From contig CAKQUG010000006.1 in assembly GCA_934277545.1 (NCBI GenBank), positions 5,473-69,472 of the forward strand: a DNA stretch of 64,000 bases, in the 5' to 3' direction. The position numbers and the translations under genes are program-made. Under the pieces are notes generated by a model. The model worked only from the letters and a program-made list of their open reading frames with translations. It did not search any database and was not told the origin of the DNA. Below, piece by piece: positions 42,469 to 58,047 of the stretch (positions are counted from its first letter, which is position 1; every line of letters begins with the position of its first letter). This DNA comes from an uncultured Alphaproteobacteria bacterium (GTDB lineage: Bacteria; Pseudomonadota; Alphaproteobacteria; RF32; CAG-239).

Positions 42469-43305
42469 CTAAAATTCCAAAACAAACAAGCAATATTCCT
42501 CTCCTATCGCACAAGAGGTGCAAACATTTTGTATATCGGATAACGTCATATTAACTAAACACTTATTGCTGTCAGTGCATTGTGAATCTCCATAATAATG
42601 GATATTGCCGTTTTTAGTTCTAAAAATCCAGACAAATTGTAGAGAAGAATGCAAAGGCTGAGCAAAATTGCTGATAAATTCTCGGCACAATTTAGTTGAA
42701 AAATTATCTGAAACCAAATAGTTATCAGTAGAAGAGGCATTTCCTAGCGCTATGTCGTAAACTAGATGGTTATCACGGGAAAATATCGTGATTATGCTGC
42801 CGACAGTATCTGATATTACAGTACTGTTTTCAAACGACCAACCTTCAGGAAGCAGATTTAATCCTTTAATTGTTTCTGCTAAATCATATTTATTGCTACC
42901 ATTATCAGATTTCAGGTTTCTCAAATTATCTATATGTTCCAGCAAACCATGAGTTAAATAACTATATCCAGCAATGGCTTTGTTAATTTTCCACTTTTCC
43001 ATAGCCTTGGAATAACCAGCAATACCGCCAACCGATAACACGCCGATAATTGCCAGTACGCCCAGCATTTCTATCATTGAACGCCCACCTTGCAACACAC
43101 TCCAGTGGTCATACTTGGCTTTGAGCGTCAGTTCATTTTCCGAGAATCCGGTATGGTATATCCGCTTTAAAAACTTGCAACAAACGCTAAGCCCTCGCCC
43201 CCTGCACCCGTCATTCTCGAATTCATCCCGAGTATCTTGTATGAACATACTCCTTTTGAATAATAATGCGATAATCTTATCTCTCAACTCCTTATATCTC
43301 CTCAT
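42469..43305 (-). CDS. type IV pilin-like protein, copy A (prepilin-type N-terminal block; start uncertain)
   Basis: QGG|RSMIEMLGVLAIIGVLSVGGIAGYSKAM has Gly, Glu at +5 and a hydrophobic helix. The track ORF extends to 43362, into the inverted-repeat module; I regard that part as non-coding. Confidence 0.6.
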   Translation of the reverse strand: MRRYKELRDKIIALLFKRSMFIQDTRDEFENDGCRGRGLSVCCKFLKRIYHTGFSENELTLKAKYDHWSVLQGGRSMIEMLGVLAIIGVLSVGGIAGYSKAMEKWKINKAIAGYSYLTHGLLEHIDNLRNLKSDNGSNKYDLAETIKGLNLLPEGWSFENSTVISDTVGSIITIFSRDNHLVYDIALGNASSTDNYLVSDNFSTKLCREFISNFAQPLHSSLQFVWIFRTKNGNIHYYGDSQCTDSNKCLVNMTLSDIQNVCTSCAIGEEYCLFVLEF

Positions 43306-43306
43306 T

Positions 43307-43483
43307 TGTGTAAAAATAATGACCGTTATTTTTACACACTTTAAACAACCGTTTGAAAACACTTAACAAAACGCAAAAAATATTGTAATTATAAAAAGTT
43401 ATTGCAAATTTCACCGACCTTTGCTACATTGCAAAAAGAGTTAGTTTTAAAGTCCAATTTAAACGGTCGTTTTTTTTACACAC
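43307..43483. repeat. conserved ~177-bp module bounded by 22-bp inverted repeats, copy A
   Basis: About 85% identical by eye to 51451-51628. Left arm TGTGTAAAAATAATGACCGTT, right arm AACGGTCGTTTTTTTTACACAC. Confidence 0.75.
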
Positions 43484-43643
43484 TTTTGTTCTGTTAGCAA
43501 AAAAATAATCTACTTTGATACCCTATAAATTATCCCGATTTTTCATCTCATTGACAAATTTTCAGATAACCACTTGACAAAATAAACATAAACAGGTATT
43601 TTAAAGTCTGAAAAAAAATTATTTATGTAAATTCTTCTGCCTT

Positions 43644-44159
43644 ATGATTAAGTTTAAGATTAAGGTCAAGAAATCCCGTATGTGGATTCCTGCCTTGGGT
43701 GTGGTGATTGCTTATGGATTTTTCCATAACTGCGCTATCGCCCCTTATTTCAACTGCCGTGTAATTGATTGGTCTCAACTGATTTTAACATTCAGCGTAG
43801 TTATCGGCTTGGGAGGCGCTCGAGATATTGTTTTACAGCGTTTTCGCTATCTCGGTCCGGTGCAAAAGGCCATTGATGTTACAGTAGGCAACAAAGAGTT
43901 GAGCAACCGCTTTTGGATTCCGGCAATCGGTTGGATTCTGGTTTTGGGTTACAGCAATAATTTTATTGTTTCTCCCTACTTTGACATTCATCCTGTTGAC
44001 TGGGAAGGCTTGCTTGCTTCACTTAGTATTTTACTGACTGTCAGCGGCGCGCGCGATTACGGTATTTATGCCACTGAGCGCAAGACCACTGAAAATGATG
44101 AAGCTAAAGCGGCAAACGCTCAAGAATCATCAACGGAAAGCTCAGAAGTTCCGGTTTAA
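43644..44159 (+). CDS. hypothetical membrane protein with an internal duplication
   Basis: Two ~80-aa repeats: RMWIPALGVVIAYGFFHNCAIAPYFNCRVIDWSQLILTFSVVIGLGGARD versus RFWIPAIGWILVLGYSNNFIVSPYFDIHPVDWEGLLASLSILLTVSGARD. Confidence 0.45.
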   Translation: MIKFKIKVKKSRMWIPALGVVIAYGFFHNCAIAPYFNCRVIDWSQLILTFSVVIGLGGARDIVLQRFRYLGPVQKAIDVTVGNKELSNRFWIPAIGWILVLGYSNNFIVSPYFDIHPVDWEGLLASLSILLTVSGARDYGIYATERKTTENDEAKAANAQESSTESSEVPV

Positions 44160-44167
44160 TCTTTAAC

Positions 44168-44200
44168 AAAAAAACAGCCTTTTTAACAGGCTGTTTTTTT
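44168..44200. terminator. bidirectional intrinsic terminator
   Basis: AAAAAAACAGCCT / AGGCTGTTTTTTT stem flanked by an A-run and a T-run, between convergent genes. Confidence 0.75.
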
Positions 44201-44204
44201 GTTA

Positions 44205-45461
44205 TTATTTCGGCAAAATCACGCTGAACACGCTTCCTTTGCCAAACTCGCTCTGCACTTTCAACTTCCCGTGATATTTATTAACAATTTCCTGCGCTAA
44301 TGAAAGTCCGAGCCCGAAACCGCCGCTTTGTCGATTTCTTCCCTTATCCGCACGATAAAAACGTTCAAAAACATGCGGAAAATCCTCTGCTTTTATGCCG
44401 ATTCCTTCATCCTGAACCGCAATTTTTACCCTATGTTCATCCGACTTGACTTCAACCGAAATTTTTTTATCATCCGGTGTATATTTTACGGCGTTATCCA
44501 GCAAAATAATCAGTAATCTTTCCAAATGCTGCGCAGACATTTTAACCGCAACCTTAGGCGAGCAAACAACTTTAATCGTTTCTTTTCTATTTTTATGCAC
44601 CATATTCAAACGCTCGGCCAGCGGCAGTAAAACATCTGCGACATTCAGTTCCGAAGCCGCCGTATTTTCTGTTTGTTCCAAGCGCGTCAGCGCCAGCAGA
44701 TTTTCCACCAAATCCGACATATTTTTTGTCTCGTCCCGCATAACCTGCAAAGCCTTGGCGTTTTGCGGCTGCTGTTCCAAAATTTCGATATAAGTCAGCA
44801 ACACGCTGAGCGGCGTCTTTAATTCGTGCGATGCATCCGAAACAAACTCTTTTTGCTTGCGATAGGCTTCGGCCAACGGCTTTACGGCATTGCCCGCCAA
44901 CAGCGCAGCTGCCAAAATTGAAAGCAGGCACAAAATTCCGACCGCAATTAAGCCATAGCTTTTATAACGATGTGTAACATAAAAATACGGCGTAACATTT
45001 AAAAGCACCACCACTCGATATTCATCTCCGTCCGGTTCATTTTTCCAACTTTCTGAAAGCGCTAAAAAACGCCAACGCTCACCGTTATTTTTAATCTTTA
45101 CGCTTTTAATTTCTCCGTCATTTTCCTGCCAGTCTGCCATTTTTTGCGTCAGCATATCGCCAGCCTCGCCGGCCGGCTGTTCCAAACGGCGCATTTTACT
45201 GTTTACAAATCCGTAAGAAAAAAAGTGCAAAGCGTTATTGCGCGCCGCCACCGCGATTCGCTCTGGTTTTACCGCTAATTCATCGGAGTCCTGCTTAAAC
45301 TCAAAAACTTCTTCCTGCAAATAGTCATATAAACTCGAGGCAATCACATTTTTTGAAATAATCCGATATGCCGCATACCCGCCCAAAAATATAAGCAAAG
45401 ACACGCTGAACAATATCAATGCGTATCTGATTAAAAGTTTACGTTTTAAAATATCTATCAT
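44205..45461 (-). CDS. sensor histidine kinase (HisKA + HATPase_c), PmrB/BasS-like architecture
   Basis: Two TM helices, H-box FVSDASHELKTPLS, N-box LLDNAVKYT, G-boxes DEGIGI and GGFGLGLS. Confidence 0.85.
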   Translation of the reverse strand: MIDILKRKLLIRYALILFSVSLLIFLGGYAAYRIISKNVIASSLYDYLQEEVFEFKQDSDELAVKPERIAVAARNNALHFFSYGFVNSKMRRLEQPAGEAGDMLTQKMADWQENDGEIKSVKIKNNGERWRFLALSESWKNEPDGDEYRVVVLLNVTPYFYVTHRYKSYGLIAVGILCLLSILAAALLAGNAVKPLAEAYRKQKEFVSDASHELKTPLSVLLTYIEILEQQPQNAKALQVMRDETKNMSDLVENLLALTRLEQTENTAASELNVADVLLPLAERLNMVHKNRKETIKVVCSPKVAVKMSAQHLERLLIILLDNAVKYTPDDKKISVEVKSDEHRVKIAVQDEGIGIKAEDFPHVFERFYRADKGRNRQSGGFGLGLSLAQEIVNKYHGKLKVQSEFGKGSVFSVILPK

Positions 45462-46147
45462 TTAAGCTCCAGCATATATCCGATGTTTTTCAGCAAGTTT
45501 ATCTGCATGTTATCTTGCCAAATTTTAAGTTTTTTACGCAAATTGTAAATATAAGAATCCAAACTTGCGCTGCTTATTTCCGGGTTATTGCCCCACACTT
45601 TTTCAAAAAGCGTTTCGCGTAAAATGGTTTTGTCGTGATTTACAAAAAGAATTTGCAATATTTTAAATTCGGTTTTAGAAAAATTAAGCGTTTGCTTGCC
45701 ATCACTCAAAGTGTTTTGCGTACAATCCATCACAAAACCGCCGGTTTCAAACACGCTGTCGACATACGGCTTGTTCTTACGGCGCAAAACTGCGTGGATT
45801 CTGGCTTTCAGCTCGCGGATTTCAAACGGTTTGGTAATATAGTCGTCAGCCCCCACTTCCAAGGCCTGCACACAATCATCCAGCTCCGACTTTGCCGTTA
45901 AAAAAATAATTCCGCCGGTATAATGGCCTTTTTTAATATCACGCAGCCACTTGCAGACTTCTATTCCCGAAAGCTCCGGCAGCATCCAATCCAGCAGCAC
46001 CACATCATATTGCTCCGGGCCATATTTAACTTCATCTATAGCCTCGACGCCGGTTTTTGCCAAATCAACTTCATAACCGTCTATTTCCAGCAGAGTTTTA
46101 ATTCCCTGCCCCAAGTTTGCATCATCTTCAACCAATAAAATACGCAT
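45458..46147 (-). CDS. OmpR/PhoB family response regulator
   Basis: MRILLVEDD, VLLDWMLPELSG, ADDYITKPF, and a winged-helix C-terminal domain (LSKTEFKILQILF...GYML). Confidence 0.9.
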   Translation of the reverse strand: MRILLVEDDANLGQGIKTLLEIDGYEVDLAKTGVEAIDEVKYGPEQYDVVLLDWMLPELSGIEVCKWLRDIKKGHYTGGIIFLTAKSELDDCVQALEVGADDYITKPFEIRELKARIHAVLRRKNKPYVDSVFETGGFVMDCTQNTLSDGKQTLNFSKTEFKILQILFVNHDKTILRETLFEKVWGNNPEISSASLDSYIYNLRKKLKIWQDNMQINLLKNIGYMLELK

Positions 46148-46194
46148 AAACGTCTCCTGGTAAAATATTTTATGCTGTTTTTATTAAGAGCGCA

Positions 46195-46246
46195 ATCTGA
46201 AATTTATCTGAAATTTTTTTCAGATTTTTTCAGATTGTTTTCAGAT
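46195..46246. promoter_or_regulatory. array of five TTCAGAT heptamers (2 inverted + 3 direct, 10-11 bp phasing) in a divergent promoter region
   Basis: ATCTGAA at 46195 and 46206; TTCAGAT at 46219, 46229 and 46240. Lies between the response regulator-histidine kinase operon and the eptA remnant. Confidence 0.5.
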
Positions 46247-46292
46247 TGACCTTCTAATTTCGGCAATGTATCAACAGGAGGACAAACAAAAA

Positions 46293-46814
46293 ATGAACAG
46301 AATAAATATAAAATCAACAACGTTAATCTGCATTGTTTCCCTTTACTTTGCAACGGTCTTAAACCTGTCGTTTTGGCGCTACATAACACACAACATTCAA
46401 ATCGACAGCCCGATGATGTTGCTGTTCGCCTTTTCCCTTGGCGTGTTTATATTTGTTCCTCTTTATGCGCTGTTCAATTTTTTATTTTGTCCTTATGTTG
46501 GTAAGCTGATAACAACAATATTGCTTTTAGGCTCGGCGGCGGCAAACTATTACATGTATGCTGACGGCATTTATATTGACTCCGATATGATTCGCAACAT
46601 TATGGAAACCAACCTGCGCGAAACGATAGAACACACTTCTTTTTCCTTCTGGATGTATGTTCTTTTTACCGGCGTGGTTCCGGCAATGCTGTTACAAATG
46701 TGCCGCATACAATATCAACCGGCCGCCGCCGAGCTCAAACAGCTGTCTATAATTCAAATATGGACATTACAGCCGGCTGCCGCTCCAGCGCTCTCGCCGT
46801 CAAATAATAATTGA
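46293..46814 (+). pseudogene. eptA: phosphoethanolamine transferase (EptA-like) N-terminal membrane domain only; sulfatase domain missing
   Basis: MNRINIKSTTLICIVSLYFATVLNLSFWRYI...YMYADGIYIDSDMIRNIMETNLRE matches the EptA/DUF1705 N-terminal region. The frame ends after ~150 homologous aa in an unrelated GC-rich tail. Full-length enzymes are about 550 aa. Confidence 0.6.
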
Positions 46815-46873
46815 CAACAGTCTGAAAAAAGCCGATAATCTATACATCTTTTAATTATTAAATTTGAATCATT

Positions 46874-47176
46874 ATGGTGTATTGGATTATTTATTTAACC
46901 TGCATCGCGGTTTTTGCTGCCATTTTATATTTAGACAGCGATGAACACAGCAAGTTTTTAGCCTGTTTTCATAAATGGCCGCAACGCATTGTCCGGGTGT
47001 TGTTTATTGTAATTATCTGTTTAATCCCGCTGATTCCGTTATATCCGGATTCTTTCTGGCAGTTTAACCGGGGAATTGCAGCTTTTTTCCAATGGGGCGG
47101 CATTGCCATTATCGGCTTTGTTTTCGGTTTGGCAATAGTTTTGCTTATCAAGCTGCTACGTTGGGTATGGAAATAA
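46874..47176 (+). CDS. small hypothetical membrane protein (3 TM)
   Basis: TTGACA-17-GATAAT promoter at 46811-46839. Hydrophobic 100-aa ORF. No family recognised. Confidence 0.4.
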   Translation: MVYWIIYLTCIAVFAAILYLDSDEHSKFLACFHKWPQRIVRVLFIVIICLIPLIPLYPDSFWQFNRGIAAFFQWGGIAIIGFVFGLAIVLLIKLLRWVWK

Positions 47177-47253
47177 AAATTAAAGCTCTAGCAGAAAATG
47201 AATTTTATCTTTTCAAAGATATGCTTCAAATTCGGCGAGAGCTTTTTTTGCAT

Positions 47254-47278
47254 AAAAAAACCGTCTTAAAACAGACGG
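47254..47278 (-). terminator. intrinsic terminator after tRNA-Arg
   Basis: CCGTCT/AGACGG stem. A T7 run follows on the minus strand. Confidence 0.5.
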
Positions 47279-47290
47279 CTGAAAGGAGAT

Positions 47291-47367
47291 TGGCGCGCTC
47301 CGGGCGATTCGAACGCCCGACCCACAGCTTAGAAGGCTGTTGCTCTATCCTGCTGAGCTAGGAGCGC
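47291..47367 (-). tRNA. tRNA-Arg (anticodon UCU)
   Basis: The reverse complement reads GCGCTCCTAGCTCAGCAGGATAGAGCAACAGCCTTCTAAGCTGTGGGTCGGGCGTTCGAATCGCCCGGAGCGCGCCA. Confidence 0.9.
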
Positions 47368-47516
47368 AACCTGACAATCTGCAACATAAATCGCACAAAA
47401 ATCGGCTGTTGTCAACAAATAAAATAAATTATTTTTAATTTTTTGTCTTGCATTTTAGACAAATTTAAGTTACTCTTAACAAGATTTCAAATTTTTAACT
47501 AATTATTTTATAAAGT

Positions 47517-47837
47517 ATGGCAAAAAATTGCTTTATCAATTTCATGGAAGGTGTTAACAAGTTCTCTTCTGAGGAACGTTCTGAGATTTCAAAGTCTTTC
47601 CGCAAGGACTTGAAGGCTTACAAAATCAGCGGCGCAATTATGAAAATCGTAGAAAGCGCCAGTGACAAAGTTCCTGTATACATCAATGTGATGTGCCAGC
47701 AGGCTCGTAAAAAGAACTTCATCACTGAATTTGAAGAAGAGTGTTCTCGACTCCGCCGCCTGTACGTTCGCGACCGCGCCGAAGTAGCTGAGAAGATTCA
47801 CGCACTTCAGGAAATTGTAACGGACAGCCTTAAGTAA
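47517..47837 (+). CDS. small hypothetical protein
   Basis: 106-aa charged helical-looking ORF followed by a hairpin plus T-run (about 47859-47900). No family recognised. Confidence 0.4.
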   Translation: MAKNCFINFMEGVNKFSSEERSEISKSFRKDLKAYKISGAIMKIVESASDKVPVYINVMCQQARKKNFITEFEEECSRLRRLYVRDRAEVAEKIHALQEIVTDSLK

Positions 47838-47978
47838 GACCTGTCCAAACCGAATTAAAGAGCACTGTTTTAGCAATAAAACTGTTGCTCTTTTTTTTAT
47901 TAGAAACAAAATATTTAAAATTAAAAAAGACCCTCGCTTGAGAGTCTTTTTAATTGCACTTTAAACAATGATTAAACA

Positions 47979-48104
47979 TTAACCTTGACGAGCTTTCAGC
48001 TTCGGGTTCTTTTTGTTAATCACATAAACGCGACCTTTACGGCGAACAACTTTACAATCCTTATCGCGTTCTTTTTTAGATTTTAACGAACTGAAACATT
48101 TCAT
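47979..48104 (-). CDS. rpmJ: 50S ribosomal protein L36
   Basis: 41-aa ORF below the track cut-off: [41 protein letters not shown]. Confidence 0.9.
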
Positions 48105-48259
48105 TTTTATTATCCTTTACAAAACATTTTGAGCGCAAAATAAGCTATTTATCCGCAAATGTCAAGCATTCTTTTTATATATTTCCACAAAATTAAGATA
48201 TATTTTATTTTTTATCTTGTATTATATCACAAAAGCACAAAACCTTTAGGACATCTGAA

Positions 48260-48814
48260 ATGAAAAAATTTTTGCTACTTACTTTTATATTTTGCAGCGC
48301 CGTAACCGCTGTTCAGGCTGAAAACTCTCTTTCTTATTTGGATGAAATGCAGCAGCTGGGCGATGTTGCCGGACAAGGGCTGGCCTGCCGCGCTCGCAAA
48401 TATCAAAAATATGAGCTTTTGGCCAGAGCTTTGCTGGTTACCAAATCGCCGAATGACAAAATGCAGCAACAAGCCATGCGCACTTATAACGAAGCCAAAA
48501 TTGACGCCATGAGCACTATTTTTGACAATGATTATGCCGGCTGCGACCAAATTGTCTATAACTTTAACCGTCAAAAGATTTTTCAATCCACGCTTTATGC
48601 CGACGGCAAAATCAAACTCTATGACGGCACCATGTTGAAACCGCGCAAACTCTATGACGCTGCCAGTTTATATAAAAACGACCCTAAAGTTTATGACAAA
48701 GCGCTGGCCAGCTACAAAAAAGCACTTGCAAAAGCGCAAAAAAACAGGCAGAATACCCCGAAAATGGAACTGCGCGACGCAAATTACAGCCGTTACGCCA
48801 ATCAATTTAACTAA
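48260..48814 (+). CDS. secreted hypothetical protein
   Basis: Signal peptide MKKFLLLTFIFCSAVTAVQA. No family recognised. Confidence 0.45.
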   Translation: MKKFLLLTFIFCSAVTAVQAENSLSYLDEMQQLGDVAGQGLACRARKYQKYELLARALLVTKSPNDKMQQQAMRTYNEAKIDAMSTIFDNDYAGCDQIVYNFNRQKIFQSTLYADGKIKLYDGTMLKPRKLYDAASLYKNDPKVYDKALASYKKALAKAQKNRQNTPKMELRDANYSRYANQFN

Positions 48815-48828
48815 AATAGGAGATAATA

Positions 48829-50508
48829 ATGGCATCGTACCAATACATTTTTGTAATGCAAAACCTGACAAAAGTCTTGCCGGGAGGGAGAGAATTGTTC
48901 AAAAACATCACACTCTCTTTTTTCCCCGGAGCCAAAATCGGGGTATTGGGTGTTAACGGGGCCGGAAAATCGACTCTTTTAAAAATTATGGCCGGTATTG
49001 ATAAGGAATTTAGTGGCGAAGCCTGGGCTGCCGACGGTGTAAAAATCGGTTATTTGGAACAAGAGCCGCAATTAGATTCAAGTAAAAACGTTATGCAAAA
49101 CGTTATGGACGGCTTGGGCGAAACTCAGCGGCTTTTGCAGCGTTTTGAAGAAGTTTCGGCCAAATTTGCCGAACCGATGACCGATGACGAAATGAACGCG
49201 CTGATTGAGGAACAAGCCGAGCTGCAAGAAAAAATCGATGCCTGCAACGGTTGGGATATTGAACGAACCGTGCAAATTGCCATGGATGCTTTGCGCTGTC
49301 CGCCGGCCGAAGCCGATGTAACCAAACTTTCAGGCGGAGAAAAACGCCGTGTCGCCCTTTGCCGGCTGCTTTTGCAAAAGCCTGATTTATTGCTTTTAGA
49401 CGAACCTACCAACCATCTGGACGCCGAATCTGTGGCTTGGCTGGAACACCACCTCAAAGACTATAACGGCACAGTGGTAATGGTAACCCACGACCGTTAC
49501 TTCTTAGACAATGTAACCGGCTGGATTTTGGAACTTGACCGCGGTCAGGGTATTCCGTATGAAGGCAACTACACTTCTTGGCTGGAGCAAAAAGAAAAAC
49601 GTCTTGCGCAGGAAGCCCGTGAAGAAAACGCCCGTCAGCGCACCTTGGCGCTGGAGCTGGAGTGGATTCACAAAAATCCGAAAGCCCGTCAGGCTAAATC
49701 AAAAGCCCGCATTAACGCCTATGATGAATTGCTGTCGCAAGCCGGACGCGAAAAACTCAGCACCGCTCATATCAATATTCCGATGACCGAACGCTTGGGC
49801 GATTTGGTAATTGAAGCCAACCACATCAGTAAAGCCTTTGGAGATAAAGTTCTGATAGATGATTTGTCTTTCAAAATTCCGAAGGGCGCGATTGTCGGCA
49901 TTATCGGACCAAACGGCGCCGGCAAAACCACCTTATTTAAAATGATTACCGGACAGGAAAAGCCGGATTCTGGCGAAATCCGTATCGGCGATTCGGTGGA
50001 TTTGGGTTATGTTGACCAATCCCGCGACGAGCTGAATCCTGATAAAAACGTTTGGGAAGAAGTTTCCGACGGTTTGGATATGATTCAGCTGGGCAAAAAT
50101 GAAGTGTCTTCCCGCGCCTATGTCGGACAGTTTAACTTTAAGGGCTCAGACCAACAAAAGAAAGTCGGTCAGCTTTCAGGTGGCGAGCGCAACCGCGTGC
50201 ATTTGGCGAAAATGTTGCGTAAAGGCGCAAACGTCATTCTGTTAGATGAACCTACCAACGACTTGGATGTAGACACTCTGCGCTCGTTGGAAGAAGGTAT
50301 CAACAACTATCCGGGCTGTGTGCTGGTAACCTCGCACGACCGTTGGTTCTTAGATCGCTTGGCAACTCACATTTTAGCCTATGAAGACAACGGACACGTC
50401 GAATGGTTTGAAGGCAATTTTGAAGACTATGAGAAAGATAAAAAAGCCCGATTGGGCGAAGATGCCTGCAATCCGCACCGCATCCGCTATAAAAAACTGG
50501 AACGCTAA
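48829..50508 (+). CDS. ettA: energy-dependent translational throttle protein EttA (ABC-F)
   Basis: Two ABC cassettes ([17 protein letters not shown]; [17 protein letters not shown]), an N-terminus [13 protein letters not shown], and about 555 aa. Confidence 0.9.
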
Positions 50509-50513
50509 ATTTT

Positions 50514-50546
50514 AAAGCCTGATATACTTAAACATCAGGCTTTTAT
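50514..50546. terminator. hairpin terminator between convergent ettA and pilin-like copy B
   Basis: AAAGCCTGAT / ATCAGGCTTT 10-bp stem followed by TTTTAT. Confidence 0.65.
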
Positions 50547-50547
50547 G

Positions 50548-51435
50548 TTAATCAGGATTGAGCAAAATTCGGAAATATCCTCGTCCGTTTTCTTTAATTG
50601 CAATATTGCAGCGTTCATTTATTTGCGCAGGAGAAGTCTGTCCGATTGTGCTTTTATTGAAAATCAACACACCGCTAGTTCCGCTCCAGCTATCGGAATC
50701 TATGCGGCTAAAGTCAACCTGTTCAACTTCATTGGGTATGGTTTGTACGATTTGTATAATATTTTTACAATATTCTTTCATGGATATAGAAAGTTTGCCG
50801 GTTCCTTCTATGGCGCTGATACGAATTGCATATTTAAATACTTGTTTGGTAGAACCGTCTTTTTGCATGTCATTTTCAATGCCATAGGTTATGCTTATAC
50901 TGTTATTATCTAAGTCATATATTATGCGGTTTTTATAAATAAAACCATTTGGTATGGCTCCCATAGCATTAAAAATATCAGTTACAGTTATTGAGCGATT
51001 TCCTCTTATGGAAGACAAATTTGGTTTTAGAGTAATAGCATTGTTTATTAACTCAACAAGCAAATCTTTCTGCTTGTCTGAATGCCACATCAGCATAGCT
51101 TTGGAATATCCGGCGATACCACCTACGCTCAGCACGGCAATAATCGCGAGCACGCCGAGCATTTCAATCATAGACCGACCAACCTCGCCACATGCGGGAG
51201 AGGTCGGCGTGATAACGCCGTGTGAGGGATACTTAAAAGACTTGCAAAAGACACCAAACCAGCGTTTCCAGTACCTACCTAAAACGTCATTCTTCAGCGG
51301 CACACACCACAGGCTGTGCCATGCTGGATAATCCATGACTTTGTTGCTGAAAGCAACGCTACTTTTTTCTCCCGCACGGGGCGAGGTTTTAAATCCCCTA
51401 CTCTTCTTCAATAAAAATTCTATACCTTTCAACAC
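50548..51435 (-). CDS. type IV pilin-like protein, copy B, with a ~95-aa leader
   Basis: GTG at 51435 preceded by AAGGAG at 7-nt spacing. ...GEVG|RSMIEMLGVLAIIAVLSVGGIAGYSKAM. Confidence 0.6.
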   Translation of the reverse strand: MLKGIEFLLKKSRGFKTSPRAGEKSSVAFSNKVMDYPAWHSLWCVPLKNDVLGRYWKRWFGVFCKSFKYPSHGVITPTSPACGEVGRSMIEMLGVLAIIAVLSVGGIAGYSKAMLMWHSDKQKDLLVELINNAITLKPNLSSIRGNRSITVTDIFNAMGAIPNGFIYKNRIIYDLDNNSISITYGIENDMQKDGSTKQVFKYAIRISAIEGTGKLSISMKEYCKNIIQIVQTIPNEVEQVDFSRIDSDSWSGTSGVLIFNKSTIGQTSPAQINERCNIAIKENGRGYFRILLNPD

Positions 51436-51450
51436 GTTGTTTCTCCTTGA

Positions 51451-51628
51451 GTGTGTAAAAATAACGACCGTTATTTTTACACACTTCGAACAACCGTCTG
51501 AAAATACTTAAAAAACAAGCAAAAAATATCGTAATTATAAAAAGTTATTGCAAAAACCGCCAACCTCTGATAAATTGCAAAAAAAGCTATTTTAAAGTCC
51601 GATTTAAACGGTCGTTATTTTTACACAC
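51451..51628. repeat. conserved 178-bp module bounded by perfect 22-bp inverted repeats, copy B
   Basis: GTGTGTAAAAATAACGACCGTT (51451-51472) is the exact reverse complement of AACGGTCGTTATTTTTACACAC (51607-51628). The left end is itself a 34-bp near-palindrome. Confidence 0.8.
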
Positions 51629-51669
51629 TTTTGACAAAACACTCTTATATGACATTTACAATTTAACAT

Positions 51670-51698
51670 TTGACATATTTAGTTTGAGCACCTAAAAT
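51670..51698 (+). promoter_or_regulatory. near-consensus sigma70 promoter (TTGACA-17-TAAAAT) upstream of pilin-like copy C
   Basis: Hexamers at 51670-51675 and 51693-51698, about 35 nt upstream of the RBS GAGGA (51721-51725) and the ATG at 51733. Confidence 0.5.
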
Positions 51699-51755
51699 AA
51701 AAATATAACTAACCAAAAATGAGGAAAGAAAGATGAAAAATAAGCAAACAAAAGG

Positions 51756-51770
51756 TCTCTCTCTCTCTCT
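51756..51770 (+). repeat. (CT)7 dinucleotide tract
   Basis: TCTCTCTCTCTCTCT read directly. It lies between the ATG at 51733 and the open frame leading into copy C. Confidence 0.95.
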
Positions 51771-51908
51771 GCAAATCCTAGACATCTAATTAAAGGTACT
51801 TTTTTCGCCGCTACACAGGTATTTACAGAGTTTTTCGATAAAATCAGAAATTTTCCAACCTCGCCAATTGAGGGAGTACTAAGAAGCGTTGCTTACAGTA
51901 ACAAGGTT

Positions 51909-52808
51909 ATGGATACTCGTCGGCCACAACCAGCGGGGTGTGGCGACAAGTATGACGTTGATTGTTGGTGCTTTAAACGCTTGTTTAATATATGTAGCAA
52001 GTTCTTTAAATACCCCTCACCCGACACTAACGTGTCGACCTCTCCCGCAAGGGGCGAGGTAAAAACAAACATCCTACACAATGGTTTGGATGTCGTGCGT
52101 CAATACGCCGCACTTTTGGAACGTGGTGTACAATGTAGTACACGAGTGAGAAAAGCGCTAGTAGAGACCAGACAGGCAAACCCGCTAGGGCAGAGTATGA
52201 TTGAAATGCTCGGAGTGCTCGCAATCATTGCGGTGTTATCAGTTGGTGGGATTGCCGGATACTCAAAAGCTATGAGTATTTGGCGGATAAACAAAGCCAC
52301 GGAAGAATATACCAACATAATTTACAATTTGCTATCAAATCTTGATGAAGCCAGAAATCAAAAATATGAAGACCCAGCTGCAGGAATAAATTTATTTGAA
52401 TATGTAAAAGCAACAGATATTGTACCTAAAAATTGGAAAAACAATTCGAATAACCAGTTTATAGACCAATATGGAAATGTTTTTGCATTTGTTCATCGAT
52501 ACAACATCGTTGTTATTGATATGTATATCGGTGGTTCAAAGCCTCTAAACAGTGGAAATGCCGGCTTAGATAGTTTCTACCCTCAATATTGTACAACAAT
52601 GTTAAGGAATGTAGCAAAACCTCTTTCTTCTATTCTTAACAATGTTTGGTTTATAATAAATGGGCGTAATGCAGGTATATATTATGGTGATAATTACTGT
52701 GTCAAAGGAAAAAATTGTATAAGAAATATGAATATGAGCACAATAAAAGATATTTGCTTACAATGTACTAATAACAATAGTTTTTGTGGTATAATTTGGG
52801 AATTTTAA
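51909..52808 (+). CDS. type IV pilin-like protein, copy C (frame is open upstream to 51744)
   Basis: ...NPLGQ|SMIEMLGVLAIIAVLSVGGIAGYSKAM. The ATG at 51909 has no RBS and lies inside the conserved SVAYSNKVMD leader motif. Confidence 0.6.
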   Translation: MDTRRPQPAGCGDKYDVDCWCFKRLFNICSKFFKYPSPDTNVSTSPARGEVKTNILHNGLDVVRQYAALLERGVQCSTRVRKALVETRQANPLGQSMIEMLGVLAIIAVLSVGGIAGYSKAMSIWRINKATEEYTNIIYNLLSNLDEARNQKYEDPAAGINLFEYVKATDIVPKNWKNNSNNQFIDQYGNVFAFVHRYNIVVIDMYIGGSKPLNSGNAGLDSFYPQYCTTMLRNVAKPLSSILNNVWFIINGRNAGIYYGDNYCVKGKNCIRNMNMSTIKDICLQCTNNNSFCGIIWEF

Positions 52809-52898
52809 AATATACAACAAACATCTTTTAACATACGCCCCAAAAAATGCAGACCGCCTGTCGCGAATGTGTTAACTCATCAGACGGGCAATGTGGCT

Positions 52899-53180
52899 TC
52901 ATTTTTTCTTTTGAACAGTTTTTGAATGTTCGACCATCTTAGGTAAAATTTTATGTTCTATTATTTGAACCTTTTCTGTACGTTCTATTTTAACAATTTC
53001 CGTATGATAATGGTCGATAATGTGCATAATTTTATGCCATAACCCGGCTTCATACGCCGCAATCGCTCCCCACACCGCCATAAGAAACATCAGCACGGTA
53101 GAAATGCTTTCGGCTATATCCAGTTTTTCTTTCAAACTATATTTAGGTTTTGAGTTTTCCATAAAAAAACATGTAATCAC
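52899..53180 (-). CDS. small hypothetical membrane protein
   Basis: 93-aa ORF with one TM (VLMFLMAVWGAIAAY). No family recognised. Confidence 0.35.
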   Translation of the reverse strand: MITCFFMENSKPKYSLKEKLDIAESISTVLMFLMAVWGAIAAYEAGLWHKIMHIIDHYHTEIVKIERTEKVQIIEHKILPKMVEHSKTVQKKK

Positions 53181-53202
53181 TCAATACCTGAATATAAATA
53201 TA

Positions 53203-53808
53203 TTATTTCGGATAGCCTACCGGCTGATGAGCGATTGTAAATTCATCTTCGCTCAAATTCAAAGCCTTTGCCACTGCTTCATCATTTGGTAAACCGCGAA
53301 TTACCGTGCCAAGACCTTTGGAGGCCGCATATAAATAAACATTTTGATAAGCGGAACCGGCATAAGCAAAGCCCCACATTTTATCCGAACTGGTATAAAT
53401 TAAATGAACGGGTGCCTGCAAAATATAATCCTGCTTTTCTGCCAAATACGGCAATAAATTTTTATCCGAAACTTTTTCCAATTGATTTTCTTTTGCCTCA
53501 TATAACCAAGCACCCTCGCCGTTCAACATAAAAACTTTCAAATTTTGATTATTAAAAGCAGTCGGAATAGTTATTTTATCATATTGGTTAACCCCTGCGG
53601 CGCTCCACAAAATCTCGCTTAAGGTAGTATCGTCAATCCGTTTATCCGTATCATAGTTTCTGCCGGAATGACGAATATTCAAAAGCTGCATTAACGGCGC
53701 CGACTGCGCTTCCAAATCAGGTTCGGGAAGTTTTTTTATCTCCGCGGCGTTTGCAGCGACAGACACAAGTATGAATGCGGCTAAACTGATTGTAAAAAAT
53801 TTGTTCAT
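53203..53808 (-). CDS. nitroreductase family protein with signal peptide
   Basis: Start taken at MNKFFTISLAAFILVSVAANA (53808), just after the HAD stop. RHSGRNY...LSEILWSAAGVN... is nitroreductase-like. Confidence 0.65.
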   Translation of the reverse strand: MNKFFTISLAAFILVSVAANAAEIKKLPEPDLEAQSAPLMQLLNIRHSGRNYDTDKRIDDTTLSEILWSAAGVNQYDKITIPTAFNNQNLKVFMLNGEGAWLYEAKENQLEKVSDKNLLPYLAEKQDYILQAPVHLIYTSSDKMWGFAYAGSAYQNVYLYAASKGLGTVIRGLPNDEAVAKALNLSEDEFTIAHQPVGYPK

Positions 53809-53818
53809 TTTGTTATCC

Positions 53819-54502
53819 TTAATTCTTACTAAAATGTTTTTTGACAGTTTTATAAACGTCCTGCATATTATCGCAGATTTCAAAGGCGCCGGCCTCCGTA
53901 CAAGCAGCAGCATATTCCGGCGTGTTATGCCCTGTAGCTCCGATATAAGCGATAACCGGTATTCCGGCGGCAACCGCAGCTTTTATGCCGGCAACGGAAT
54001 CTTCCACCACCAAACAATTTTGCGGTTCAAAGCCCATTTTTTCCGCCGCATACAAAAAAATATCCGGCGCCGGTTTTCCGTTTGCCACCATATAAGCGGT
54101 AAAAGTGTTATGCCCGTCAAAATATTTACCCAAACCGAGTTTTTTAACTTTTTTATTATGCTTTTCGATTGTAGCGCCGGTTGCAACACACTGAGCAAAA
54201 TTTTTATCATCTAAAATTTTTTCTATATCCGTTGTCAGCACTAATTCAGAGGCAATCAGCCTGTCTTCGTTTTGATGAATTTCTTCCCAAAATTTTTCAT
54301 CAAGTTTTATATTCGGAAAATCTACAGAAAACAAATCCACCTTGGTTTTATCGGCCTTCCCTTCTAAATATTGTTTTTGCTGAGCCGGCGAAAGTTTTAA
54401 ACCATATAGTTTTTGCAGCGTGTCGGTCCAATTTTGCACCCACAAATGCTCGCTGTCCGCCAAAACTCCGTCAAAATCCCAAATCAGCAAATTTTTATGC
54501 AT
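53819..54502 (-). CDS. HAD family hydrolase (beta-phosphoglucomutase-like subfamily IA)
   Basis: LIWDFDGVLADSE (DxDG motif), GKPAPDIF and VEDSVAGIKAAVAAG. Confidence 0.8.
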   Translation of the reverse strand: MHKNLLIWDFDGVLADSEHLWVQNWTDTLQKLYGLKLSPAQQKQYLEGKADKTKVDLFSVDFPNIKLDEKFWEEIHQNEDRLIASELVLTTDIEKILDDKNFAQCVATGATIEKHNKKVKKLGLGKYFDGHNTFTAYMVANGKPAPDIFLYAAEKMGFEPQNCLVVEDSVAGIKAAVAAGIPVIAYIGATGHNTPEYAAACTEAGAFEICDNMQDVYKTVKKHFSKN

Positions 54503-56128
54503 TTAATTCTCCTTATGTCGATATTCATCTTTTAAAATCCACAAAGACGGAAGCTCCGTTTGCTTGTAATATTTTTTAACCAAATCCATATTCCATATAT
54601 AGGCTTTAGGCTGCGGAATATTAATCAGCAATTCGGTTAAAGGATAATCTTTTATATTCATTTTCTGATATAAATACGTCATATCCGCATTGTATTCAAA
54701 CAGTTTTTTCTCTCGGCGCTCGCTGAACGGAGTGTTCATATAATCCGTCGTAAAAATAATTGTCGGCCTTTTTTTGATAATCACTTCATCCAAATTTGTT
54801 TTTTTACCAGCAAAATTTGTTTCATACACATAACCGGTGTCGTTTAATAAAAACCAAACATAACCACTGTCGGGACGGAACAAATTAGGGCTGTAATTAT
54901 GCGCATTCATAACCATTTCATCGGCCGAAGTGTTTTCGATAATAAATTTAGTATTCAACAAAGCATTCTTTATTTGGTCGCGGTATATCTCGCTGCTGAA
55001 ATTAGCGTAGTTTGCCGAACCTAAAATACAGATAGAGCAAAATAAAAACAAATCAAATAATTTTTGCTTAAATTTTGACATATTTCCAAACAAAACATCT
55101 GCAATGATTATTGAAGCAAACGCCAGCAATAAAGAAAAATAATGCGGATACGGCGAAAAAGTCAAAAGCCTTGCCCCGAGTTCTCCGAAAAACAAAACAA
55201 CCAAACAAAGACTGGCAGGTTTCTTTATTTGCAAAAACTTAGCATAAAGCAAAACCGCCGCCGTGCTAAGAACGGTCGTAATCGGCGTAAACCGAACAGC
55301 ACCCCAACCGTTGACAAAAGGCAAATACAGCTGAAAATTCCCCAAATTAACCTGTACTCTGTGCAAACCGTAATATTGCACCAGCGCACTGTTCAACGTA
55401 TAATTTAATTCAATATATTTGAAAAACATTCCGTGATAGCACAACCAAGCGACAAAACTCAATGTGATAACAGCTGGCAATATCAGCGCCTTGCCGAAAT
55501 CTGCAGGTTTAATTTGCTTTTGCCCTAACAAAATAAAAGTATATATTGCCAACACCAACAGTAACAATATAATCTTTTGCAAAAAGAAAAATGAAAGTGT
55601 AAAAAGCACAAATGAAATGATTAAATCTTTGCCGCGTTTTTCCTCCAAATAAGACAAATAATAATATAAAGCACTCCAAAAACATAAATTCATAAACGTA
55701 TCCGGCCGAAATTCCGTGATATAGCGGCTGTCATCATAGCCGCCGCAAAACAATAAAAACGCAGCCAACCAAACTTGCCAACCACCCAGCCATTTTGCAA
55801 TAATTTTATAAATATAAAACCAACAGGTAAACGAAACCGCCACCGCAACAATTCGGGAAACATAGGCAATATTTAAATTATCATACATCAGTCCGGCAAC
55901 CGGAGCAAACAAATACCACAACAGCGGATTATGATGTTCAAAAAAATCAATATACGGCGTTTTGCCGCTCCATACCAGCCAGGAAACATGCAAATGTTCA
56001 AATTCATCGGACGGATAACCCATATAGAACATATCAAAAACAATTTTGACCAACAACAAGGCTATTGTCAAAAGAACCAAACATCCTGTTATGCTAATGT
56101 TACTTAAATTTATCTTATACTTCATCAT
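54503..56128 (-). CDS. polytopic GT-C fold glycosyltransferase (family 39/83, ArnT/PMT-like)
   Basis: About 11-13 TM helices. The first-loop motif YPSDEFEHLHVSWLVWSGKTPYIDFFEHHNPLLWY resembles the DE...PY.D..PPL signature of the ArnT/PMT families. C-terminal soluble domain. Confidence 0.5.
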   Translation of the reverse strand: MMKYKINLSNISITGCLVLLTIALLLVKIVFDMFYMGYPSDEFEHLHVSWLVWSGKTPYIDFFEHHNPLLWYLFAPVAGLMYDNLNIAYVSRIVAVAVSFTCWFYIYKIIAKWLGGWQVWLAAFLLFCGGYDDSRYITEFRPDTFMNLCFWSALYYYLSYLEEKRGKDLIISFVLFTLSFFFLQKIILLLLVLAIYTFILLGQKQIKPADFGKALILPAVITLSFVAWLCYHGMFFKYIELNYTLNSALVQYYGLHRVQVNLGNFQLYLPFVNGWGAVRFTPITTVLSTAAVLLYAKFLQIKKPASLCLVVLFFGELGARLLTFSPYPHYFSLLLAFASIIIADVLFGNMSKFKQKLFDLFLFCSICILGSANYANFSSEIYRDQIKNALLNTKFIIENTSADEMVMNAHNYSPNLFRPDSGYVWFLLNDTGYVYETNFAGKKTNLDEVIIKKRPTIIFTTDYMNTPFSERREKKLFEYNADMTYLYQKMNIKDYPLTELLINIPQPKAYIWNMDLVKKYYKQTELPSLWILKDEYRHKEN

Positions 56129-56293
56129 ATTTATATTATAAAATAGCCAACAAAACTAAGTCAATTTATTTCTAAATCTGTCCACGCCAAAATATACCTA
56201 TCATTTTATACCCAAATACAAAAAAAATACTTACATAAAAATTTTTCCAAGAATATACTGTCAGAGTGTTATGTGTTATAAAATAGGGAAAAA

Positions 56294-56905
56294 ATGAAAC
56301 TTATAGAATTTTTAAAAGGAATTCCGGCGCGCTTGCAATGGAATTTATCAAAACTTACCGTTGTTGAATTGATTTATATTGCAGCGATTCCATTCATGAT
56401 GAATTATGCGCGTGCCGAACTTTTTACGGAAGGCGGCTTGGTAGAAAATTTACAGCTTTTGATTTTAGGAATAGCTTTGATTATCGCCCTGCGTTCACCA
56501 AAGGATAAAACTTTATTTACGGCTCTGACACTGGTTATTGTGCTTATGCTTATGCGTGAAACCAATTTAGGGCGTTCCTATTTTTGCGAAAAATATTTAT
56601 CGCCGGATGAAATCTGCCGTTGGAAAAATATGAAATACGGCTTTATAGTCGAACCTCTGCGTAACCTTTACGGCGCGTATATTCTGTATTATATATGGAG
56701 CAAAAAAGTATATCAAACCTTATGGCGCTATATTTTGCAGGCTCCTGTTTTTGTTTGGGATTCTTTCGTTTTAGTCGGTGCGATAATTGCGGCCACCCTT
56801 GCCGAATTTCCGTTTATTGATAACGAAATTTTGGAAGAAAGCAGCGAAATGCTGATGTATATTGCCTTTACCCATCTTATTTGGCGATATTCTCACACCG
56901 ATTAA
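56294..56905 (+). CDS. hypothetical polytopic membrane protein
   Basis: 203-aa ORF with about 5 TM helices. No family recognised. Confidence 0.4.
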   Translation: MKLIEFLKGIPARLQWNLSKLTVVELIYIAAIPFMMNYARAELFTEGGLVENLQLLILGIALIIALRSPKDKTLFTALTLVIVLMLMRETNLGRSYFCEKYLSPDEICRWKNMKYGFIVEPLRNLYGAYILYYIWSKKVYQTLWRYILQAPVFVWDSFVLVGAIIAATLAEFPFIDNEILEESSEMLMYIAFTHLIWRYSHTD

Positions 56906-56925
56906 ACGTGTAAATTTTTGTTACA

Positions 56926-57651
56926 TTAAAAGGAAGTGTTATCCAACAAAAACACTATACCGCAGCGATTAAGCTCGCATTTCTTGCAAAGTTCAGCCAC
57001 CTTAGCTAAACTATAGGGCTGACATCCCATATCTTTTGCATATTCAGTCGGAGCCGCTTTTCCGCAAACCGCATAACCGAAATTTTCATTCCAAACAACC
57101 CAATTACTATTAAAAACCTGCCCCATCTCATACAATTTCTTACAGCAGGCAACTGCGTCTTTTCCCGCCGGCATTTGATGATACACATGCAGCCTTATAC
57201 CATATTTAGCCCAATATCTGGTTAAAATCTGCAATCTGTTGCCAAACAAATCTCTGCGGTTCGCATCCAACATGCCTTGAGGAATCACTCCTGATTCAAT
57301 CAAAGTTCCGGTAATATCCTTAACCGTATCGCCGAATGATTTTTGGTTCATATACATAGCCTGTGTTTCTACAATAACCTGGGTTAAGTTTGCACTCCAC
57401 TTATCCAGTTTATACATACTCATTGCTTTGGAATATCCGGCAATTCCTCCGACTGACAGCACGCCGATAATAGCCAGCACGCCCAGCATTTCAATCATAC
57501 TTCGTCCGCCCTGTATATTGTTACCAACGCCATACTTCGGCACTTCATGCCGTTTAATGGACTGAGACAGTTTCGGAGTATCCATGACTTTGTTGCCAAA
57601 GGCAACGCTTATTAAACGATAGAATACACTATTTTCAAACTTCTTACACAT
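56926..57651 (-). CDS. type IV pilin-like protein, copy D, with a 49-aa leader
   Basis: AAGAGG lies 9 nt before the ATG at 57651. ...NIQGG|RSMIEMLGVLAIIGVLSVGGIAGYSKAM. Confidence 0.65.
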   Translation of the reverse strand: MCKKFENSVFYRLISVAFGNKVMDTPKLSQSIKRHEVPKYGVGNNIQGGRSMIEMLGVLAIIGVLSVGGIAGYSKAMSMYKLDKWSANLTQVIVETQAMYMNQKSFGDTVKDITGTLIESGVIPQGMLDANRRDLFGNRLQILTRYWAKYGIRLHVYHQMPAGKDAVACCKKLYEMGQVFNSNWVVWNENFGYAVCGKAAPTEYAKDMGCQPYSLAKVAELCKKCELNRCGIVFLLDNTSF

Positions 57652-57675
57652 ATTTCCGAACCTCTTAATATACCT

Positions 57676-57700
57676 AAAATAAAAACCCGCACAAAGCGGG
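57676..57700 (-). terminator. short GC hairpin plus U-run directly upstream of the copy D RBS
   Basis: The minus strand reads CCCGC-TTTGT-GCGGG followed by TTTTTATTTT. The stem is only 5 bp. Confidence 0.45.
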
Positions 57701-57708
57701 CGGATGTT

Positions 57709-57846: not shown

Positions 57847-57956
57847 ACGCCCTAAAAGCACCATAGTACTTTCAAAAGAAACATTATCGGAAAACATAAA
57901 GGTTGTAAAGAAAAAAATACTTCATCAATAGCAATAAAATTATCACAATAATCTCA

Positions 57957-57987: not shown

Positions 57988-58047
57988 CTTAAAGAAATAG
58001 CAATATTTTTCGACCTTTTTAAAATCTAACTTTGTTATATAGACATA

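Follow-up and report, generated by a model that had tools for sequence, protein, structure and literature searches.

What kind of protein carries a nearly invariant type IV prepilin signal behind dozens of residues of leader, and how could such leaders have arisen? The question is raised by four paralogous genes, here called copies A to D, in a 64,000-nt stretch of DNA from an uncultured Alphaproteobacteria bacterium (GenBank assembly GCA_934277545.1, contig CAKQUG010000006.1; the whole stretch is referred to as the window). The class III signal of prepilins consists of a leader ending in Gly-1, followed by ~21 mostly hydrophobic residues broken by Glu+5, and the leaders described are 6–26 aa long, or ~15–30 aa in type IVb pilins (PMC4471445), whereas those in the window measure 49 (D), 68 (A), 86 (B) and ~152 (C) aa. 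The four genes belong to a family that we consider likely to be a hyper-expanded, lineage-wide set of type IV pilin-like proteins of uncultured human-gut Alphaproteobacteria, closest to type IVb pilins. Their long leaders are in-frame mosaics of palindromic repeat DNA.

Four prepilin-like genes

Open reading frames (ORFs) were called in the window, all six frames were scanned for the conserved block, and the DNA of the four copies was aligned. The ORF call and the scan bear out the first-pass annotation, which had reported four paralogous ORFs sharing G-(R/Q)-SMIEMLGVLAII(G/A)VLSVGGIAGYSKAM; the pattern SMIEMLGVLAII[GA]VLSVGGIAGYSKAM was matched exactly four times, at 43000–43080, 51094–51174, 52194–52274 and 57421–57501. 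The copies lie as follows, with the classes referring to three types of 5′ cassette.

42469–43362, minus strand: copy A, class 2 cassette, longest open frame (ORF call)
43084–43305, minus strand: leader coding region of copy A
43083 to 42472, minus strand: mature part of copy A, with the stop codon at 42469–42471 (ORF call)
43000–43086, minus strand: invariant block of copy A, Gly-1 to Met+28 (G↓RSMIEMLGVLAIIGVLSVGGIAGYSKAM)
50548–51435, minus strand: copy B, prepilin-like gene of class 2
51094–51180, minus strand: invariant block of copy B, Gly-1 to Met+28
51909–52808, plus strand: ORF of copy C as first read
51744–52808, plus strand: long open frame of copy C, 149 leader codons and a mature part with Gln+1 (52191–52805)
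52188–52274, plus strand: invariant block of copy C (G↓QSMIEML...)
56926–57651, minus strand: copy D, prepilin-like gene with class 1a cassette

Copy D starts at ATG 57651 (MCKKFEN..) and has its Gly codon at 57505–57507, its block at 57421–57507 and the 49-aa leader first assigned to it. Copy A, to which the database protein P0001 is 100% identical (homology search), likely starts at TTG 43287 with the Shine–Dalgarno (SD) motif GAGGAG 10 nt upstream, the ATG of its relatives being GAG here; its alternative starts are ATG 43305 and a short-leader candidate, TTG 43095 with GGAG. Copy B starts at GTG 51435, 7 nt after AGGAG, and has no further start codon within 41 codons of Gly-1. The start proposed for copy C, ATG 51909, did not hold: it lacks an SD and sits within a longer open frame, which runs on to 51744, crosses a (CT)7 tract and does not share the frame of ATG 51733. 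The C-termini are Cys-rich in A, C and D, as first described, and the mature part of B is a divergent subtype with only two Cys and the C-terminus ...LNPD.

DNA differences among the four blocks fall almost entirely at third codon positions, and even the codons for Gly-Arg/Gln-Ser differ by copy (GGG/GGT/GGA; CGT/CGG/CGA/CAG; Ser as TCA/TCT and AGT). Because these residues are kept via differing codons, translation must start upstream of Met, and upstream of Gly, and it is the protein sequence that is selected. A start at Met+3 (MIEML...), with the Gly-Arg-Ser DNA serving as SD, is ruled out by the same synonymous codons and the Ser TCN/AGY switches.

A hyper-expanded family

The four copies are real paralogues, as reported at first, but they are not isolated: the family they belong to numbers dozens of copies in each genome, many of them with leaders of 7–8 aa. 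A homology search with copy A returned >7,600 proteins, nearly all metagenomic, the named ones coming from ‘Alphaproteobacteria bacterium’ metagenome-assembled genomes (MAGs), and an exhaustive profile search gave 5,562 cluster representatives at 50% identity. A scan of one genome per species gave at least 589 matching stretches; a small number of human-gut Alphaproteobacteria MAGs, which come from Hadza, Nepal and other cohorts, account for the bulk of them. The comparison of copy number and leader length in relatives, which had been advised for the four genes, thus yields single MAGs with at least 47 and at least 35 copies and leaders from 7–8 aa to ~220 aa. Literature searches found no description of the family. 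Unless another source is named, the counts that follow refer to the window plus 77 fetched loci, 1.26 Mb in total, with 153 unique copies, 129 of which are not cut by a contig end; loci are labelled L001 and so on.

Gly-1 and Glu+5 are present in 153 of 153 copies and Arg+1 in 150, Gln+1 being unique to copy C. Mature residues 1–28 are essentially invariant, from +6 to +23 the residues are hydrophobic or small and hardly vary, and a hydrophobic stretch of 21 residues is accompanied by a Tyr at ~+24. Both the class III architecture and the unusual +1 residue, noted earlier in four genes, are therefore properties of the family. Under the published definition (PMC4471445), the N-terminus is by its sequence a predicted class III signal in all but leader length and +1 residue.

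The mature part has a median length of 204.5 aa and six Cys in 109 of 150 copies. Many relatives are proteins of 208–215 aa with an ordinary prepilin leader (MYKNCEKG↓RSMIEML, MKQNQYG↓RSMIEML) and others bear N-terminal extensions of up to ~270 aa; among the best 150 of the 5,562 representatives, ~95 have at least 22 residues before the block. The 129 complete copies comprise 52 with short leaders (7–8 aa, e.g. MYKNLEKG↓R), 16 with a class 1 start (MYKN..) and an in-frame insertion, 24 of class 2 (median leader 33 aa) and 37 of class 3 (median 121 aa). The long leaders range from 29 to ~220 aa through in-frame insertions between the start codon and Gly-1.

We propose that the 28-residue block would form the hydrophobic N-terminal helix of a class III signal (Gly-1, Arg+1, Glu+5), presumably constant because every paralogue must fit one processing and assembly machinery, while the mature domain (~175–200 aa, usually with six Cys) would have diversified into a repertoire of surface variants, each copy with its own promoter and one of the three 5′ cassettes.

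Two side observations concern membership. Locus L005 carries two tandem shorter variants (16367–16900 and 16920–17519, plus strand; 177 and 199 aa) with short leaders, which diverge after the hydrophobic helix (..GGLSVYNRMQ.., ..GGFSMVNKMQ..) and may be minor-pilin-like subunits; their surroundings are not a pilus operon. Several public bins with many family copies (records CAVGVF01, CAVKTH01 and CAVIDY01; loci including L001 and L003) bear the label ‘Eubacteriales’ or ‘Bacteroidaceae’, probably through binning or taxonomy errors, as the family and its neighbour genes resemble those of Alphaproteobacteria MAGs.

Palindromic repeat modules in the leaders

BLAST of the four leaders against the window found matches only in other leaders, which rules out that their modules are window-wide repeats. 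Copies A and B share ~210 nt of promoter and 5′ untranslated region (UTR), and the leaders of B and C contain related units that resemble doublets of repetitive extragenic palindromic (REP) sequences, known as REPINs, or MITEs (miniature inverted-repeat transposable elements).

51182–51393, minus strand: REPIN/MITE-like unit of ~210 nt in the leader of B, with inverted hairpin repeats at 51368–51388 and 51181–51201 (CCTCGCCccgtGCGGGAGA ... TCTCCCGCatgtGGCGAGG)
51852–52060, plus strand: homologous REPIN/MITE-like unit in the leader of C, with inverted ends at ~51856–51876 and 52041–52060

The B and C units match at 72% over 212 nt and have terminal inverted repeats, and their ends pair in the predicted fold (z −2.7 for B and −3.4 for C). 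Internal stems vary by compensation between B and C, for example with GTTGCT/AGCAAC versus GTTGCC/GGCAAC in D and GGCACA/TGTGCC versus GCCACA/TGTGGC. The leader of copy A has no excess structure (z +0.2).

The first-pass annotation had called the leaders mosaic. They are indeed in-frame mosaics of palindromic modules; as amino-acid sequence they are not conserved. A 36-nt palindrome, GCACCAGTCATTCTAGGCCTTGTGCCTAGAATCTTG, is read in three combinations of frame and orientation, as PVILGLVPRI (35 copies), in reverse as ILGTRPRMTG (33 copies, consensus 100% identical) and in reverse in another frame as DSWDKPKNDG (11 copies), and a degenerate family palindrome lies inside the leader of copy A (..DTRDEFENDG..). 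In homologous segments, mismatch rates at the three codon positions are 0.104/0.101/0.126 in leaders versus 0.135/0.083/0.318 in mature parts, and 20% of homologous module pairs stand in different reading frames. Since the palindrome is read in several frames and codon periodicity is flat, the peptide is not conserved; only the open frame is. An indel-length test of coding constraint yielded chiefly gap pairs of 1 nt from blastn, in the mature domain as well.

REP/REPIN-like palindromic modules would, on this evidence, have accumulated in frame between the start and Gly-1 codons and so given rise to long translated leaders. How passive that accumulation was is the point at which a second explanation has to be weighed. 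The palindrome occurs 29 times in leader frames, which total 32.8 kb or 2.6% of the sampled bases, versus four times in the other 1.22 Mb, a ~270-fold enrichment. Such confinement is a poor fit to passively tolerated, genome-wide selfish DNA and weighs against the simplest form of our proposal; it hints at a function or at a mechanism that spreads modules from leader to leader. The modules might instead be functional nucleic acid, either RNA hairpins tuning translation or mRNA stability or DNA palindromes driving swaps of 5′ cassettes among paralogues. Apart from the enrichment and the compensatory stem changes between B and C, this explanation draws on the position of the modules, which stop precisely at the Gly-1 codon, each module type with ends of its own, and are also found just 3′ of family genes. 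It draws further on orthologues of A whose mature parts are 63–79% identical while their leaders and cassettes are unrelated, which points to the conserved block as a place where 5′ regions are swapped. Yet the leader of A lacks excess structure, 40% of copies carry no module at all, no recombinase or RAYT-type gene turned up (though none was searched for), and the enrichment could reflect gene conversion among paralogues together with the lack of any other permissive site. We regard a functional role of this kind as possible, though doubtful.

One of the four palindrome copies outside the family leaders is itself in a leader, that of a Cys-rich secreted protein in locus L053 (7443–9287, minus strand). 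This 589-aa protein has an ordinary signal-peptide-like segment and no Pfam or NCBIfam match, and at its 5′ end stand the class 2 palindrome, SD and start, along with the leader repeat modules, that are known from the pilin-like genes. It follows that the 5′ cassette is portable from one gene family to another.

The modules recall two known kinds of repeat. Rickettsia palindromic elements are in-frame palindromic repeats inside protein-coding genes (PMC1779305, PMC10969869); like them, the modules are short palindromic repeats within ORFs whose frame stays open and which would be translated, but unlike them they are confined to the removable leader of one family and one other secreted protein and form multi-module mosaics rather than being dispersed through unrelated genes. 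With REP sequences and REPINs (PMC3116915) they share imperfect palindromes of ~20–36 nt and inverted pairs round a spacer (the B and C units; PVILGLVPRI...DSWDKPKNDG pairs), whereas REP and REPIN sequences are extragenic and genome-wide and the modules are intragenic and leader-specific.

Proposed pilin identity

The structure prediction that had been recommended for the four proteins supports a pilin-like fold, the lollipop in which a long N-terminal helix packs against an antiparallel sheet. An AlphaFold2 model of mature A (pLDDT 85.5) consists of a helix at residues 4–51 followed by a sheet, with at least eight strands, and its top structural match in the PDB is the type IVb pilin CofA (probability 0.98, E 0.016, TM 0.45–0.50). 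Among the relatives, some have PilS_N or Bundlin among their precomputed Pfam hits, or are named ‘prepilin-type’ at NCBI.

Several observations weigh against a pilin identity. The match to CofA is modest, and a sequence-profile search of the PDB found no pilin and no other relative. The hidden Markov model (HMM) searches suggested in the first-pass annotation both stayed below threshold, with 13.9–15.8 bits against a cutoff of 21.2 for PF07963 N_methyl and 10.2–15 bits against 16.3 for TIGR02532. We know of no characterised pilin with Arg at +1. The earlier statement that the window holds no pilus or type II secretion system (T2SS) genes was confirmed in a tblastn search whose queries were the E. 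coli proteins HofB, HofC and GspD, E, F, L and O, and the same queries and regex screens found no A24 peptidase (PilD/GspO), PilC/GspF platform protein or secretin in the window and the 77 loci. As these cover ~15–20% of each genome (an estimate from 336 kb of CAKQRZ01 against a guessed genome of ~2 Mb), they do not show that the machinery is absent from the genomes. The wider search that had been called for thus leaves cleavage at Gly↓Arg, like filament assembly and antigenic or adhesive variation, as something we infer. The sole machinery-type gene in the 1.26 Mb encodes a lone 317-aa ATPase of the T2SSE family (L066:18283–19236, minus strand, equal to L007:19348–20301, plus strand), divergent and best matched by PilT/PilU at 113 bits against a cutoff of 319; it lies outside any pilus operon, between family genes, and adjoins a gene for a 197-aa FxLYD-domain protein. 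No other kind of class III signal was found in the sampled DNA.

These points could also be taken to mean that the proteins are not pilins but bitopic inner-membrane or surface proteins that retain their N-terminus, the invariant helix being an anchor or oligomerisation module and no prepilin peptidase being involved. The missing peptidase, platform protein and secretin, the sub-threshold scores for the methylation motif and the atypical Arg+1 would all fit, as would the presence of the class 2 cassette and modules in front of the non-pilin Cys-rich protein of L053. We nevertheless think it unlikely. The Gly-1/Glu+5 register, the 21-residue hydrophobic stretch and the Tyr at ~+24 match a class III signal (PMC4471445), 40% of copies have prepilin-typical leaders of 7–8 aa, and the predicted fold is pilin-like; a retained functional domain should, moreover, be conserved, and the long-leader peptide is not.

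If the proteins are pilins, type IVb pilins (CofA, TcpA, BfpA/bundlin, and PilS of R64 and Salmonella) are the closest comparison. They share with the family the class III signal with Gly-1 and Glu+5, a +1 residue other than Phe, mature parts of ~200 aa with Cys pairs towards the C-terminus, and leaders that exceed those of type IVa pilins in length, along with the best structural match (CofA) and the weak PilS_N and Bundlin hits. The family differs in leaders that reach ~220 aa against the lengths described (PMC4471445), in Arg+1, in its dozens of scattered paralogues, each with its own promoter, in the lack of an adjacent assembly operon and in family HMM scores that are all below threshold. 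The pilE/pilS system of Neisseria likewise combines many copies, a constant N-terminal pilin segment, variable C-terminal domains and repeats flanking the copies; here, in contrast, a promoter, a start codon and a complete N-terminus belong to every single copy, and neither silent promoterless cassettes nor a G4-type recombination signal were identified.

Three 5′ cassettes

The class 3 cassette of copy C contains a simple repeat that sets the reading frame.

51670–51698, plus strand: promoter-like TTGACA-17-TAAAAT of copy C (11/12 match)
51721–51789, plus strand: class 3 start of copy C, with SD GAGGAAAG and ATG 51733 encoding MKNKQTKG; this frame stops at 51787–51789 (MKNKQTKGLSLSLQILDI, then stop)
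51756–51770, plus strand: (TC)7T tract, i.e. (CT)7, with the long frame out of phase with ATG 51733

Class 3 N-termini generally read MKNKxxKG followed by (CT)n, and all class 3 copies share the 25-mer GAGGAAAGAAAGATGAAAAATAAGC without change. In copy C, loss of one unit or gain of two (6 or 9 units) fuses the frames into a ~357-aa prepilin, and copy C is by this reckoning a putative OFF allele, one CT unit from ON. Among the MAG loci, 31 class 3 copies have seven units, six have eight and one is interrupted, so that 0/38 are in frame. Metagenome contigs were scanned with the invariant 25-mer, which gave 83 stretches of 4 to 8 units; intact genes on these contigs (n = 36) have six units, the in-frame length, in four cases, seven in 25 and eight in seven. 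The four in-frame alleles (L082, L111, L134 and L137) are complete prepilins of 268–343 aa. Between L092 and L121, and between L112 and L119, tracts of seven and eight units from different samples are embedded in flanks that are ~99% identical, and degenerate copies supply additional alleles of 6 and 9 units, for an overall range of 4–9 units. The polymorphism among relatives of copy C is the signature expected of slipped-strand phase variation, in which slippage in (CT)n would switch class 3 genes between out-of-frame and in-frame states.

The assembled consensus is, all the same, strongly biased to OFF lengths, and in-frame alleles are fewer than the expected one-third (0/38 and 4/36), which tells against a simple switch. 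This bias, and the fact that seven and eight units are each one unit from an in-frame length, could mean that templates of seven and eight units do support class 3 expression, through transcriptional slippage or a ribosomal frameshift on (CU)n, at a constant low level and with no heritable ON/OFF state. Such expression is improbable: DNA length is polymorphic at the same locus across samples, intact in-frame alleles exist, and templates of seven and eight units would need frameshifts in opposite directions. RNA polymerase slippage is, to our knowledge, documented for homopolymer runs and not for dinucleotide runs.

The putative slipped-strand switch of class 3 has a close parallel in the opa genes of Neisseria, in which CTCTT repeats in the region coding for the leader peptide restore or disrupt the frame according to unit number (PMC3745409). 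Both are multicopy surface-protein families with a pyrimidine-rich simple repeat in leader-coding sequence where unit changes set the frame; the differences are a CT dinucleotide instead of a pentamer, pilin-like products instead of beta-barrel outer-membrane proteins, use of the cassette by only ~1/3 of the family and a switch that is here proposed from allele sequences. Eight metagenome contigs (L089, L103, L123, L125, L135, L140, L144 and L150) end 16–29 nt after the class 3 ATG, before or within (CT)n, which fits assembly breaks caused by the repeated cassette, by heterogeneity of tract length, or by both.

The class 1a cassette of copy D would combine a structured, riboswitch-like RNA and a terminator with a short leader.

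57662–57910, minus strand: conserved structured 5′ leader RNA of copy D, with promoter TTTACA-17-TAATGT, ~170 nt of multi-helix RNA and an intrinsic terminator

The terminator (57701–57685) lies ~35 nt before the SD and ATG. About 30 further copies of the RNA, ~215 nt long, occur in the loci (e.g. L026:9699–9958 and L043:9482–9741). The window copy has a folding z of −5.05, and an alignment of 30 copies has 50 consensus pairs, 19 of them with compensatory changes; 95.9% of its cells are paired, compared with 85.4% in shuffles (0/500) and 33–42% in slid registers. The sequence of one helix, 6–10 bp long, changes in nearly every copy and yet stays perfectly complementary, and the invariant GGACGGAUG matches by complementarity, at 8/9 positions, the terminator’s 5′ arm, CAUCCGCCC, likewise invariant, which suggests a putative antiterminator. 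Rfam 15 at its gathering threshold found only four tRNAs in the window, which rules out a known Rfam family for this leader, and a permissive scan of 57500–58100 gave only sub-threshold small RNAs (sRNAs), the best being sRNA-Xcc1 at 26.5 bits against 53. The class 1a RNA is a well-supported candidate for a new cis-regulatory RNA, a riboswitch or an attenuator. Leaders of this kind, such as c-di-GMP riboswitches, occur upstream of pilin genes; class 1a resembles them as a conserved, covarying multi-helix RNA with an intrinsic terminator just before the SD, and differs in having no Rfam 15 match and one helix that changes from copy to copy.

The class 2 cassette of copies A and B consists, in order, of a promoter-like site, a 32-nt palindrome (TGTGTAAAAATAAC-N4-GTTATTTTTACACA), AGGAG(G) and a start encoding M(L/F)KSIEF...

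43307–43338, no strand: class 2 palindrome of copy A, TGTGTAAAAATAATGACCGTTATTTTTACACA, between promoter and SD, with a related half-site at 43462–43485
51452–51483, no strand: class 2 palindrome of copy B, with a half-site at 51607–51630
51563–51534, minus strand: promoter-like TTGGCG-18-TATAAT of copy B, between palindrome and half-site

The palindrome is a putative 5′-UTR hairpin or operator. An invertible promoter, enclosed by the palindrome and its upstream half-site in the manner of fimS-type inverted repeats, was considered and rejected; all 26 copies have the same orientation, and the palindrome adjoins the SD and ATG.

Translation of the long leaders

That the frames upstream of the block stay open, and are hence translated, was already proposed for the four copies, and the family supports it. 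Their start-to-Gly stretches contain 0 in-frame stops, against 2–13 in each other forward frame, with a shuffle P of no stop of 0.0069 for A, 0.0068 for B, 0.0001 for C and 0.027 for D. Over the 129 complete copies the upstream frame is open for a median of 67 codons (at least 60 in 72 copies and at least 100 in 39), whereas in the two control frames there the medians are 7 and 10 codons and no copy reaches 100. Canonical pairs of SD and start codon stand at the distal end of each open frame, and leader net charge is positive in 80–100% of copies, as expected of a cytoplasmic segment. We conclude that the long leaders are, to judge from these features, very probably translated.

It is very unlikely that the upstream stretch is instead an untranslated 5′ UTR of structured repeats with translation beginning a few codons before Gly-1: the TTG 43095 of copy A, just three codons before Gly-1 with GGAG at a usable distance, does offer an alternative, very short leader and counts against our conclusion for that copy, 35 of 81 long-type copies have ATG, GTG or TTG with an SD-like motif within 30 codons of Gly-1, and the leaders of B and C fold more stably than shuffles, but B has no start codon in that region, C and D have only GTG without SD, the frames are open far beyond controls, which would be needless if they were untranslated, the distal SD and start pairs are canonical, and the in-frame class 3 alleles are single continuous ORFs from ATG to stop.

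A translated leader would stay in the cytoplasm and be cut off at Gly↓Arg; hence, plausibly, only an open frame and a positive charge are selected in it.

Neighbouring genes

Three further features of the window lie near or between the copies.

54503–56128, minus strand: gene between C and D for a 541-aa polytopic membrane protein of the PMT_2 / GT-C glycosyltransferase type
46266–46814, plus strand: 182-aa ORF matching only the N-terminal domain of the phosphoethanolamine transferase EptA/EptB, with the catalytic domain missing
47291–47367, minus strand: tRNA-Arg(TCT), near the EptA/EptB-like ORF

It is conceivable from its type that the 541-aa protein may modify surface proteins. The 182-aa ORF is probably a truncated gene.

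Implications

Few surface proteins have been studied as thoroughly as type IV pilins. The leaders would clearly exemplify palindromic repeat DNA that resides in a stretch of a gene which is translated yet disposable. If cleaved as proposed, leaders of 50 to ~220 aa would mean that membrane insertion and cleavage by prepilin peptidase tolerate very large cytoplasmic extensions, and Arg+1 would widen the known substrate range of that enzyme. For annotation, the consequence is that many genes of the family are mis-started or split by gene callers.

A more speculative possibility, which we offer tentatively, is that a gut commensal of this lineage may hold a programmable ‘wardrobe’ of ~50 interchangeable pilus subunits, among which the choice would be made by a riboswitch-like RNA, a palindromic operator or hairpin and a (CT)n slippage switch, with the repeat modules shuffling 5′ cassettes among paralogues and a prepilin peptidase removing leaders of >200 aa. 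Almost nothing is known about how these gut Alphaproteobacteria interact with their host, and the size of the family, together with the (CT)n switch, points to large-scale surface variation in common but uncultured members of the human gut community.

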